Shown one piece after another: positions 8,372 through 14,874 of a DNA stretch of 64,000 bases (the first letter of the stretch is position 1; every line of letters begins with the position of its first letter). The position numbers and the translations under genes were made by a program. The stretch is from assembly GCA_041742965.1 (NCBI GenBank), contig JBGTNQ010000003.1, forward strand, positions 12,483 through 76,482. The letters are read 5' to 3'. A model generated the notes under the pieces. It ran no database searches, had not been told where the DNA came from, and worked only from the letters and a program-made list of their open reading frames with translations. The stretch is from Minisyncoccia bacterium (GTDB lineage: Bacteria > Patescibacteriota > Minisyncoccia > Phycocordibacterales > Zambryskibacteraceae).

Positions 8372-8640
8372 GTTGCCGTACGCACCTGATCATTACAAAA
8401 GTAGAGTATGGTCAATATAGCGGGTTGGAGGAGTAGTACCTCGCAAGGGGACAAAGACTCATAACCTGCACAGGTTAAGTTAATTAAGTGTATATTTAGA
8501 CATAGCGGGTTGCCGTACGTACCTGATCATTACAAAAGTAGAGTATGGTCAATATAGCGGGTTGGAGGAGTAGTACCTCGACAGGCTCATAACCTGTAGG
8601 CATCAGTGCAATTCTGATACCCGCAACAAGTATGAAAATA
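8372..8640. repeat. Tandem direct repeat (2 x ~135 bp) in the tRNA-Met leader region
   Basis: The unit gcgggttgccgtacgNacctgatcattacaaaagtagagtatggtcaatatagcgggttggaggagtagtacctcg...ctcataacctg occurs twice in tandem and is followed by a perfect 16-bp hairpin (8630-8672). Confidence 0.6.
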
Positions 8641-8697
8641 ATCCTGCCTTTGCAGGATTATTTTCATAAGGTATATTTGATGGGTTCGGTATTTCTT

Positions 8698-8770
8698 GAC
8701 GGGGTAGCTCAGTTGGTAGAGCACAGGACTCATAAGCCTGGGGTCGTGGGTTCAATCCCCACCTCCGTCA
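8698..8770 (+). tRNA. tRNA-Met/Ile2 (anticodon CAU)
   Basis: Cloverleaf: acceptor GACGGGG/CUCCGUC, D-arm GCUC-AGUUGGUA-GAGC, anticodon loop CUCAUAA, T-arm GUGGG-UUCAAUC-CCCAC. G1-C72 is paired, so this is not an initiator. Confidence 0.8.
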
Positions 8771-8866
8771 CCGGCAATAAATCTGCATCTATGCGGGTTG
8801 ATATAAGTAATTTGCATGGGTGTTTTATTGCCTCTAGGTGTTGAATCTGTTAGTTTATATCGTATT

Positions 8867-8941
8867 GCGGGCGTAGCTCAATTTGGTTAGAGCACTCCCC
8901 TGTCACGGGAGAGGTTGCCGGTTCAAGTCCGGTCGCCCGCG
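8867..8941 (+). tRNA. tRNA-Asp (anticodon GUC)
   Basis: Acceptor GCGGGCG/CGCCCGC, anticodon loop CUGUCAC, T-arm GCCGG-UUCAAGU-CCGGU. Confidence 0.9.
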
Positions 8942-9135
8942 CATAAAACAAACTGTCCCGGACGCGAAAGCGTTCGGGCAGTATTGTTTTACAGTGACGC
9001 CGGACTTGAAAGACGGAGGCCGCGAAGCCGTCCTGAGCTTTGCGAAGGGCGTGGCCGAGTCCGGGCAGGAGCCACTTATGACCCCGCTATGGCGGGGGAA
9101 TTAGTGAGCTGACGCCAAGTCCGGTCGCCCGCGCA
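8942..9135 (+). other. ~190-nt GC-rich structured element abutting the tRNA-Asp 3' end, ending in a 19-bp duplicate of that 3' end
   Basis: GNRA-capped hairpins (e.g. CCCGGACGC-GAAA-GCGUUCGGG and CCCCGC-UAUG-GCGGGG). The direct repeat aagtccggtcgcccgcgca occurs at 8925-8943 and 9117-9135. A near-identical copy lies at 10939-11129. Confidence 0.6.
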
Positions 9136-13571: not shown

Positions 13572-13737
13572 CGCCATGCATTCGCTTTGCTCAGCACCTT
13601 CGGTCCACTAGGTTGCGCAACAAACAAAAACATTAGATCTTGTGTCTAGTGTTTTTGTTTTGCAAAAAGCTTTGAAATTCTATAATATTTAAGCCGTTCT
13701 TTTGAATTGTGCGCCAGTGTATATGTTTTGTTAGTTT

Positions 13738-14000
13738 GCCAATGTAGCTCAGTTGGTAGAGCACCCCCATGGTGGATCGTAAGATTCTGCCCAGCCAAAA
13801 GGTAACTTTTGGATGAATCCCGAATAACGGTTAAAGTCCTACAAAGGGATAAGACCGTGGCCCTGAAATATCTGAAGGGCCCGAACGACTGACAAGGGTT
13901 CGCCCAAGGCGAAAAGATACAGTCTAGTCCTCTCATATAAATAAAAGAGAGGTGTAAACGAAGGGGGAGGTCATCGGTTCGATCCCGATCATTGGCTCCA
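13738..14000 (+). tRNA. tRNA-Thr (anticodon GGU) interrupted by a ~187-nt group-I-like intron between positions 36 and 37; CCA encoded
   Basis: Exon 1 (13738-13773) is GCCAAUG-UA-GCUC-AGUUGGUA-GAGC-A-CCCCC-AUGGU. Exon 2 (13961-14000) is AA-GGGGG-AGGUC-AUCGG-UUCGAUC-CCGAU-CAUUGGC-U-CCA. The intron spans 13774-13960, with a U at the exon-1 end, a terminal G and an AAGAUACAGUCUAGUCC P7/P9.0-like stretch. Confidence 0.7.
13774..13960 (+). ncRNA. Putative group I intron in the tRNA-Thr anticodon loop
   Basis: Insertion 3' of anticodon nucleotide 36, the position used by the tRNA-Ile and tRNA-Arg introns of proteobacteria. The exon ends in U and the intron ends in G. An HNH endonuclease gene lies immediately downstream. 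Confidence 0.55.
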
Positions 14001-14077: not shown

Positions 14078-14530
14078 ATGGCTAACCCAAAAAAACCGCG
14101 CCCCAAGTGTCCGACATGTGGCAAAGAGCCTGCTCGGTCATTCTACAAATATTGTAGTAATAGATGTCAGCAGGAATATCAGCGTGCGCGTTATCTTAGG
14201 GAATGGAAGGCCGGGAAAAGAAGTGGCCTGCAAACTATAGGAATTGTCACGGTGACAATAAAACGTTACCTTAGAGAAAAATTCGGGGATAAATGTTGTA
14301 TTTGTGGTTGGTCGAAAGTTAACCCAAAAACCGGGAAGGTCCCATTGGTCGCTGACCACATTGATGGGAATTGGCGCAATAATGCAGAAGAAAACCTTCG
14401 TTTGATATGTCCAAATTGCGATGCATTATTGCCAACGTTTTCCGCGCTAAATAAAGGTAATGGCAGGGAAAATAGGGCGCCAAGAAAAAGAACTCAAGAA
14501 GCGACGGAGTTTTTAAAAAAGCCAAAGTAG
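14078..14530 (+). CDS. HNH homing-endonuclease-like protein
   Basis: CPTCG...CSNRC zinc ribbon followed by CCICGWS...VPLVADHIDGNWRNNAEENLRLICPNCD, an HNH motif with a flanking CxxC pair. Confidence 0.8.
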   Translation: MANPKKPRPKCPTCGKEPARSFYKYCSNRCQQEYQRARYLREWKAGKRSGLQTIGIVTVTIKRYLREKFGDKCCICGWSKVNPKTGKVPLVADHIDGNWRNNAEENLRLICPNCDALLPTFSALNKGNGRENRAPRKRTQEATEFLKKPK

Positions 14531-14591
14531 TTCAGTGGTAGAACACTGCTTTCGTAAAGCAGGAACGCGAGTCCGATTCTCGCCTTTGGCT
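14521..14591 (+). tRNA. tRNA-Thr (anticodon CGU)
   Basis: Acceptor GCCAAAG/CUUUGGC, D-arm GUUC-AGUGGUA-GAAC, anticodon loop UUCGUAA. Its 5' end overlaps the last three codons of the HNH ORF. Confidence 0.85.
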
Positions 14592-14874
14592 CTAGTTTTG
14601 TTTGTTTTAATGATAAAAATCTGTATTCTGTAGGAACGGGGGAGCAAGCCTTCTCCGTCAGAGAATTGGCCCGACTCAATCGGCAATAAGCACAGAGGGC
14701 TCTGTTCGTGGTCCATATTGAACGGTGGTCTGTGCACTGCTCGGCGGGATTAGACACCTCGCTAAAATCAATTGGATTGGCAGTACGTCCGCAAGGTCGA
14801 AACTGTCTCAAGACACGGACAGGGGGCGCCGATACACCACTCGGCGTCCCTTTTCATTTGCTATAATCACACTT

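Follow-up and report, generated by a model that had tools for sequence, protein, structure and literature searches.

The group I introns of subgroup IC3 that interrupt bacterial tRNA genes, such as those of Azoarcus tRNA-Ile(CAU) and of Agrobacterium and cyanobacterial tRNA-Arg(CCU), are compact (~200 nt) and ORF-less. They have a very short P1 that uses anticodon bases, and they possess P2, P9.0, and an L2 tetraloop docking on P8. All of these features recur in the locus described here.

In Patescibacteria, 'divergent group I introns' located at position 36/37 of tRNA-Thr(GGU) were described by Nakagawa et al. 2026 (mSystems, PMC13011429; preprint 10.1101/2025.07.03.662931), an article which attributes the term to Castelle et al. 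2018. Its Table 1 lists these introns in three complete Patescibacteria genomes (class Paceibacteria). According to the article, introns of the Thr type have canonical length and predicted structure and are missed by the Rfam model RF00028, and ARAGORN often mis-calls them as tRNA-Arg(GCG) split at 34/35. They were detected with the gpI_bact_tRNA model of tFind (Williams 2020, bioRxiv 10.1101/2020.01.27.920355). In the article's tree the IA clade contains the Thr introns, as a long branch beside other Patescibacteria tRNA introns. The splicing assays that its text describes concern Asn and Asp introns only, for which in vitro self-splicing was shown.

The window (the whole 64-kb stretch of DNA that was analysed) contains a tRNA-Thr(GGU) gene interrupted by a 187-nt intron at 13738-14000 of the + strand. 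The locus is very probably a tRNA-Thr(GGU) gene with a compact, ORF-less group I intron at 36/37 that belongs to the divergent Patescibacteria Thr family. The intron is a further member of the published class and not a new one. The gene and its surroundings comprise the following features:

13659-13686, + strand: promoter-like site TTTGCA-16 nt-TATAAT, ~50 nt upstream of the tRNA (10/12 in a consensus scan, pattern match only)
13738-13773, + strand: exon 1 of tRNA-Thr(GGU), positions 1-36, with anticodon G34 G35 U36 at its end (ARAGORN with introns; intron-less orthologues at loci L183 and L147)
13774-13960, + strand: probable group I intron, 187 nt, ORF absent (match to the leave-out model R1, see below)
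13961-14000, + strand: exon 2 of tRNA-Thr(GGU), positions 37-76, with encoded CCA (ARAGORN; intron-less orthologues)

Exon 1 reads GCCAATGTAGCTCAGTTGGTAGAGCACCCCCATGGT and exon 2 reads AAGGGGGAGGTCATCGGTTCGATCCCGATCATTGGCTCCA. [quoted passage not shown] With introns allowed, ARAGORN reports tRNA-Thr(ggt) i(37,187) at exactly 13738-14000. After removal of 13774-13960 it draws a canonical 76-nt cloverleaf with the anticodon stem CCCCC/GGGGG, the variable loop AGGTC, discriminator U73, and encoded CCA. The original prediction that the exon halves reassemble into a cloverleaf is thereby borne out. It had also stated that exon 1 ends in U and the intron in G, and both bases are in place: U precedes the intron and G is its final base. 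Its core reading, a group I intron 3' of nucleotide 36 in tRNA-Thr(GGU), holds. The stretch that it picked out as part of the core, AAGAUACAGUCUAGUCC, was rightly chosen and corresponds to J8/7-P7-P9.0 (AAGATACAGTCTAGTCC is present in the intron at 13914-13930). A cloverleaf that needs no splicing had been named as a refuting observation; none was found above threshold by ARAGORN or Rfam. A 19.8-bit Rfam tRNA alignment that appeared in a local E-value search is spurious and requires a 35-nt insert.

The split gene is not called in the 64-kb window by default ARAGORN (introns off), and Rfam at gathering threshold finds six ordinary tRNAs in the window, the split gene not being among them. Besides the split gene, the only Thr gene that ARAGORN detects within the 64 kb is tRNA-Thr(CGU) at 14521-14592. 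A cluster of tRNA-Met, tRNA-Met, and tRNA-Asp is located at 8556-8942 of the window; in some related metagenome loci (L129, L191) a similar Met/Asp tRNA cluster precedes the Thr(GGU) gene.

A scan of one-genome-per-species contigs with the pattern GGTAGAGC-N7-TGGT-N(125-155)-AAGATANAGTC returned at least 120 loci. Chance matches were L099 (Membranihabitans), which has no tRNA and no match to R1, and L076, an intron-less Thr(GGU) gene in which the pattern was met through downstream sequence. The same intron was detected at the same site in at least 118 loci in independent genomes, and this recurrence of the same boundaries means that the split gene is not a product of chance. The matches listed are nearly all Patescibacteria MAGs, and the names among them include Paceibacteria/Parcubacteria, Wolfe-, Kaiser-, Yanofsky-, Komeili-, Uhr-, Magasanik-, Doudna-, Andersen-, and Azambacteria, as well as others. 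Both a tRNA-Thr host and a CPR host had been called unusual in the original prediction. These statements are outdated, since well over 100 species-level genomes carry the intron and almost every match listed comes from Patescibacteria.

Intron lengths among the matches listed range from 158 to 266 nt. Across more than 100 genomes from many Patescibacteria classes, ~60 core positions are invariant. Some members deviate from the common form: the intron of L025 (5921-6084) is without P9 and measures 158 nt, that of L096 (4371-4574) carries an extra ~70 nt (266 nt in total), and in L150 (1027-1292) J8/7 is AAAUAUA instead of AAGAUA. Such members indicate that the search pattern under-counts the family. 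A full family member (R1: 176.9 bits) is also found in Niastella populi, a cultured Bacteroidota isolate, on a 300-kb contig (NZ_LWBP01000002.1; L038, 5187-5446, - strand). Its exons resemble CPR ones (compare L183), and resolvase and HerA/TrwB-like (conjugation-type) genes lie 1-5 kb from it. The Niastella copy suggests horizontal acquisition on a mobile element.

Many of the homologues are labelled Arg(gcg), His(gtg), or Pro(ggg) by ARAGORN, and the same kind of mislabelling is reported in PMC13011429. If such labels were correct, the gene would be split at another position and have another identity, namely tRNA-Arg(GCG) split at 34/35, tRNA-His(GUG), or tRNA-Pro(GGG). This is very improbable. 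The mislabelling is due to the bases that precede the terminal G, which look like those of an anticodon, and for the window itself ARAGORN gives Thr(ggt). Only the 36/37 frame yields U at -1 together with G at the intron end: with exon 1 framed to end in TGGT, 110/116 introns listed have a final G followed by AA. In addition, GGU is paired with GCC in P1, the last two bases ahead of the terminal G are taken up by P9.0, the neighbouring tRNA-Thr(CGU) (14521-14592) has a matching acceptor stem and U73, and intron-less syntenic genes read ...CATGGTAAGG....

These intron-less tRNA-Thr(GGU) genes came to light in the metagenome scan for HNH homologues (see below); they share the neighbourhood of the split gene and are followed by the same HNH gene. 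The anticodon arm of one of them (L183), CACCCCCATGGTAAGGGGGAGGTCATCGG, is identical to that of the predicted spliced product of the window, and the exons of another (L147) are near-identical to those of a split gene (L122). The intron-less syntenic alleles therefore fix the junction at GGU/AA. The intron is polymorphic for presence and absence among relatives (L122 vs L147; L183, L129, L132, L138, L144, L168, L189, L191, and L193 belong to the same set of alleles). Alleles with and without the intron that share near-identical exons imply that it was recently gained or precisely lost within the lineage. Together with the Niastella copy they point to gain or loss that is ongoing too, against strict vertical descent.

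In Table S2 of PMC13011429, two of the three genomes with a Thr intron show two Thr genes by tRNAscan-SE vs three (or an extra 'Arg') by intron-aware tools. On these counts, related complete genomes apparently have no Thr(GGU) gene other than the split one, in which case ACC and ACU codons could not be read without splicing. That ordinary tRNA finders overlook the gene would also fit a dead tRNA pseudogene with an unrelated insertion or an archaeal-type intron cut by a protein endonuclease. Either explanation is extremely unlikely. The exact boundaries, the invariant core, the compensatory helix changes in more than 100 species, and the apparent lack of a second Thr(GGU) gene in those complete genomes argue against a pseudogene, and no bulge-helix-bulge motif of the archaeal type was seen at the junctions. 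The evidence that the insert is instead a group I intron comes from covariance models and from its fold.

Rfam Intron_gpI (RF00028) scores 15.2 bits on the window (E 0.19 in a permissive 451-nt search), with an alignment that deletes P4-P6. The window intron is thus below the gathering threshold of 50 bits. A non-significant Intron_gpI score and a missing P1-P9 fold had been proposed jointly as grounds for refutation. The first was observed, but the second was not, because a covariation-supported P1-P9 fold exists; as both would be needed, the group I reading stands. The low Rfam score reflects the limits of the model and not the fold, and a weak score is expected given that the Thr class is published as missed by RF00028.

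A covariance model (R1) was prepared from 106 relatives, with the window and its closest relative (L079) left out. R1 matches the window at 13770-13962 over model positions 1-199 of 199 (186.9 bits, E 3.8e-59) and has no second match anywhere in the 64-kb window. The scores of family members are 137-188 bits. R1 also produced weak full-length matches, with E from 2e-9 to 7e-5, to adjacent tRNA-Tyr(GUA) introns at four loci:

L021 4710-4941, L055 7207-7411, L064 953-1162, L077 3-211: tRNA-Tyr(GUA) genes with a canonical group I intron after U35

The Tyr introns of L021 and L064 pass Rfam Intron_gpI (61.9 and 54.6 bits); the Thr intron of L021 reached 23.1 bits in the same search. Since R1 matches Tyr introns that pass Rfam, the Thr family is tied to bona fide group I introns. 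In several CPR genomes tRNA-Tyr(GUA) lies directly upstream of the split tRNA-Thr(GGU), which places two intron-bearing tRNA genes side by side. These Tyr introns are of the 35/36 type of Nakagawa et al. 2026.

The fold was drawn by hand on the window and then tested on a structure-blind MAFFT alignment (A1) of 108 distinct sequences among the matches listed, with 9-nt exon flanks. Its elements are:

13771-13791, + strand: P1, anticodon GGU (13771-13773) with guide GCC (13789-13791), U13773·G13789 at the 5' splice site
13793-13814, + strand: P2 hairpin, GUAA (GNRA) tetraloop at 13802-13805, 8/8 pairs with double-sided changes
13819-13821, + strand: P3 5' strand CCC, pairs with 13896-13898, pseudoknot with P7
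13827-13832 with 13853-13858, + strand: P4, invariant, 100% paired in A1, also found by RNAalifold
13836-13850, + strand: P5, covaries in A1, also found by RNAalifold
13859-13881, + strand: P6 hairpin GGCCCU...AGGGCC, 5/6 pairs double-sided (e.g. GG/CC→CC/GG)
13887-13891, + strand: P7 5' strand GACUG, pairs with CAGUC at 13920-13924, invariant in 108/108, also found by RNAalifold
13896-13898, + strand: P3 3' strand GGG, pairs with 13819-13821 (A1)
13899-13913, + strand: P8 hairpin UUCGCC CAA GGCGAA, 6/6 pairs double-sided in A1
13914-13924, + strand: J8/7 AAGAUA, then the P7 3' strand CAGUC, without variation in the family (the search pattern fixed AAGATA and AGTC but left the middle C and the flanking positions free)
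13927-13928, + strand: P9.0 5' strand GU, pairs with AC at 13958-13959, the two bases before the terminal G
13929-13952, + strand: P9 hairpin CCUCUC...GAGAGG, 5/6 pairs double-sided in A1
13960, + strand: terminal guanosine (omega G), G in 110/116 members listed, uniformly framed

In A1, 89.9% of the cells hold standard pairs vs 73.4% in shuffles, and 0/500 shuffles reach 89.9%. When the partners are slid by 1-3 columns, the paired cells fall to 30-48%. Double-sided (compensatory) changes were found in 38/55 pairs (with the caveat that relatedness among the sequences of A1 inflates the cell counts relative to the number of independent events). The covarying helices are P2, P3, P5, P6, P8, P9, and P9.0; P4 and P7 are invariant and therefore give no covariation signal. 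RNAalifold on A1 independently recovers an anticodon stem spanning the intron, P1, P2, and P4-P9, and its P1 takes in two covarying intron pairs.

The P1 pairs are GC, GC, and UG in 108, 108, and 106 of the 108 sequences in A1, and the next two pairs covary (GU 43, AU 38, UA 13, GC 10). P1 is extended by a short hairpin with a GUAA-type loop (13774-13788), whose register is ambiguous in the window. A bulged U13788 is doubtful, as in the family the covarying partner of this position is the first base of the intron. P3 has a length of just 3 bp and shows compensatory CG→UA changes at each pair, with 98.8% of cells paired in A1. A manual P3 register, GAAUCC/GGGUUC, was dropped because CCC/GGG is the register that covaries. 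P4 encloses J4/5 (AAA), P5, and J5/4, the whole block covering 13827-13858. By analogy with known group I introns, G13887-C13924 is presumed to be the guanosine-binding pair. The P9.0 pairs are GC (68) or AU (34) and CG (54) or UA (42), and 98% of their cells are paired in A1. No support was found for a P10 pairing, and no P7.1 or P7.2 was seen in the intron between P7 and the 3' strand of P3. All helices of the P3-P8 and P4-P6 domains can be drawn in the window intron, which shows the group I traits of a U·G pair in P1, an omega G with P9.0, a P3/P7 pseudoknot, J4/5, and J8/7.

The type of the L2 tetraloop tracks the type of P8 in A1 (counts uncorrected for shared ancestry). GAAA loops co-occur with a long P8; a short P8, which the window also has, goes with GYAA and GYGA loops. 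The 11-nt-receptor-like motif CUAAG..UAUG is found in 18/44 GAAA members vs 1/64 others (Fisher p = 1e-7, uncorrected for ancestry). At the level of sequence, this co-occurrence matches the classical tertiary contact between L2 and P8 in small group I introns.

An Intron_gpI score far below threshold and a P3 of 3 bp are also what might be seen in a group I-derived intron with a diverged core that has lost self-splicing, so that it needs a host protein cofactor or is removed inefficiently; the word 'divergent' applied to the Thr type in PMC13011429 leans the same way. Such a loss is distinctly unlikely. The canonical elements are all there (U·G, omega G, P9.0, J8/7, J4/5 adenines, L2-P8 covariation), and the core has been under extreme purifying selection in more than 100 genomes. 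Furthermore, no maturase ORF is present in the intron, and the neighbouring HNH gene shows no link to it.

For an intron that self-splices, the fold rests on sequence and covariation, and the chemistry would be that established for group I introns. The pre-tRNA would be transcribed from the promoter-like site near 13659-13686 and its intron would fold into P1-P9. The anticodon G34 G35 U36 would pair with the guide GCC (13789-13791), forming the U·G wobble at the 5' splice site, and a free guanosine in the P7 pocket would attack after U13773. The terminal G13960, set by the 2-bp P9.0 (13927-13928 with 13958-13959), would then replace the free guanosine. Finally, the freed 3'-OH of U36 would attack after G13960, and the exons would be ligated to ...CAUGGU/AAGGGGG.... 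What keeps the exons together is probably the anticodon stem, whose pairs covary across the intron, and not a long P10.

The window has a GC content of 40.6%. The split gene is flanked by genes for murB, an Exo_endo_phos nuclease, prfA, and an ABC ATPase. Of these, prfA and the ABC ATPase are syntenic with neighbours of the split gene in Parcubacteria/Paceibacteria MAGs (67-81% protein identity), which makes a Patescibacteria (CPR) host likely. One further gene lies close to the split tRNA:

14078-14530, + strand: HNH endonuclease gene, 150 aa, 77 nt downstream of the split tRNA (PHROG 1271, E 1.6e-18)

Its 3' end falls inside tRNA-Thr(CGU) (14521-14592), and the protein has an N-terminal treble-clef zinc ribbon and the motif ADHIDGN...NLRLICPNCD. 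The HNH gene follows the split Thr gene in 11 other loci. In 80 metagenome loci its homologues are found after a split Thr(GGU) gene (~12), after an intron-less Thr(GGU) gene (at least 10), after tRNA-Gly(CCC) (at least 12), or, in the rest, after neither. As the homologues are not tied to the intron, a role of the gene as a free-standing homing endonuclease for the ORF-less intron was rejected as unsupported. Homologues follow tRNA genes on many CPR contigs, and the gene has the appearance of a free-standing HNH gene associated with tRNAs.

The split gene goes unnoticed in standard annotation with tRNAscan-SE, Rfam, or default ARAGORN; consequently tRNA-Thr(GGU) would be recorded as absent from the organism, and the estimate of its genome completeness would come out too low. 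The ~60 invariant positions and the seemingly sole gene for an essential tRNA prompt the idea that the Thr(GGU) intron family is more than a selfish passenger. This is unlikely, but if it were true, guanosine-dependent splicing could couple the supply of tRNA-Thr(GGU) to the nucleotide or energy state of the cell, a form of regulation at the RNA level in genomes that have few protein regulators. A regulatory role is speculated on for tRNA introns in general in PMC13011429. The locus is one more case of the published pattern in which genome-reduced Patescibacteria keep self-splicing-type introns in essential tRNA genes. The present analysis contributes a structure backed by covariation, including that of P9.0 and of L2 with P8, and a working covariance model that detects this class where Rfam's does not. 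It also shows the class to be much wider than the three published complete-genome cases and adds a family copy from a cultured Bacteroidota isolate. How group I introns are understood today is not altered by these findings.

Compared with other known systems, the window intron shares its anticodon-loop setting, and probably its phylum, with the Patescibacteria tRNA-Asn, tRNA-Asp, and tRNA-Tyr introns (subgroup IA). Those are inserted at 35/36, one nucleotide earlier than the Thr intron, and the Tyr introns of L021 and L064 pass RF00028 whereas the Thr intron does not. According to PMC13011429, some of the Asn, Asp, and Tyr introns hold HNH genes inside; the Thr intron holds none. The IC3 introns of tRNA-Ile(CAU) and tRNA-Arg(CCU) are inserted at 36/37, immediately 3' of the anticodon, like the window intron. 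Their cores, however, are of the ..GUGCAGAGACUA.. and AAGAGAGAGUCC type and differ from that of the Thr family, and they are found by RF00028 while the Thr family is not. IC3 introns belong to IC, whereas the Thr introns are placed in the IA clade of the tree in PMC13011429.

The closest match is the published Thr class, with which the window intron shares the host tRNA, the insertion site, and the size class. The complete Wolfebacteria genome CP011209.1 (L037) is presumably one of the three published cases (we take it to be identical with GCA_001029635.1), and its intron aligns with the window intron over the whole core. The window intron and the published class both fall below RF00028, and family members are mislabelled Arg(GCG) by ARAGORN. 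The window appears to come from a genome outside the published three; an exact match to its flanking protein turned up only on a 6-kb Logan contig of SRR28170462. A covariation-tested fold is presented here for the Thr type, and none was found in the text of PMC13011429. The three published complete-genome cases compare with at least 118 species-level genomes here.
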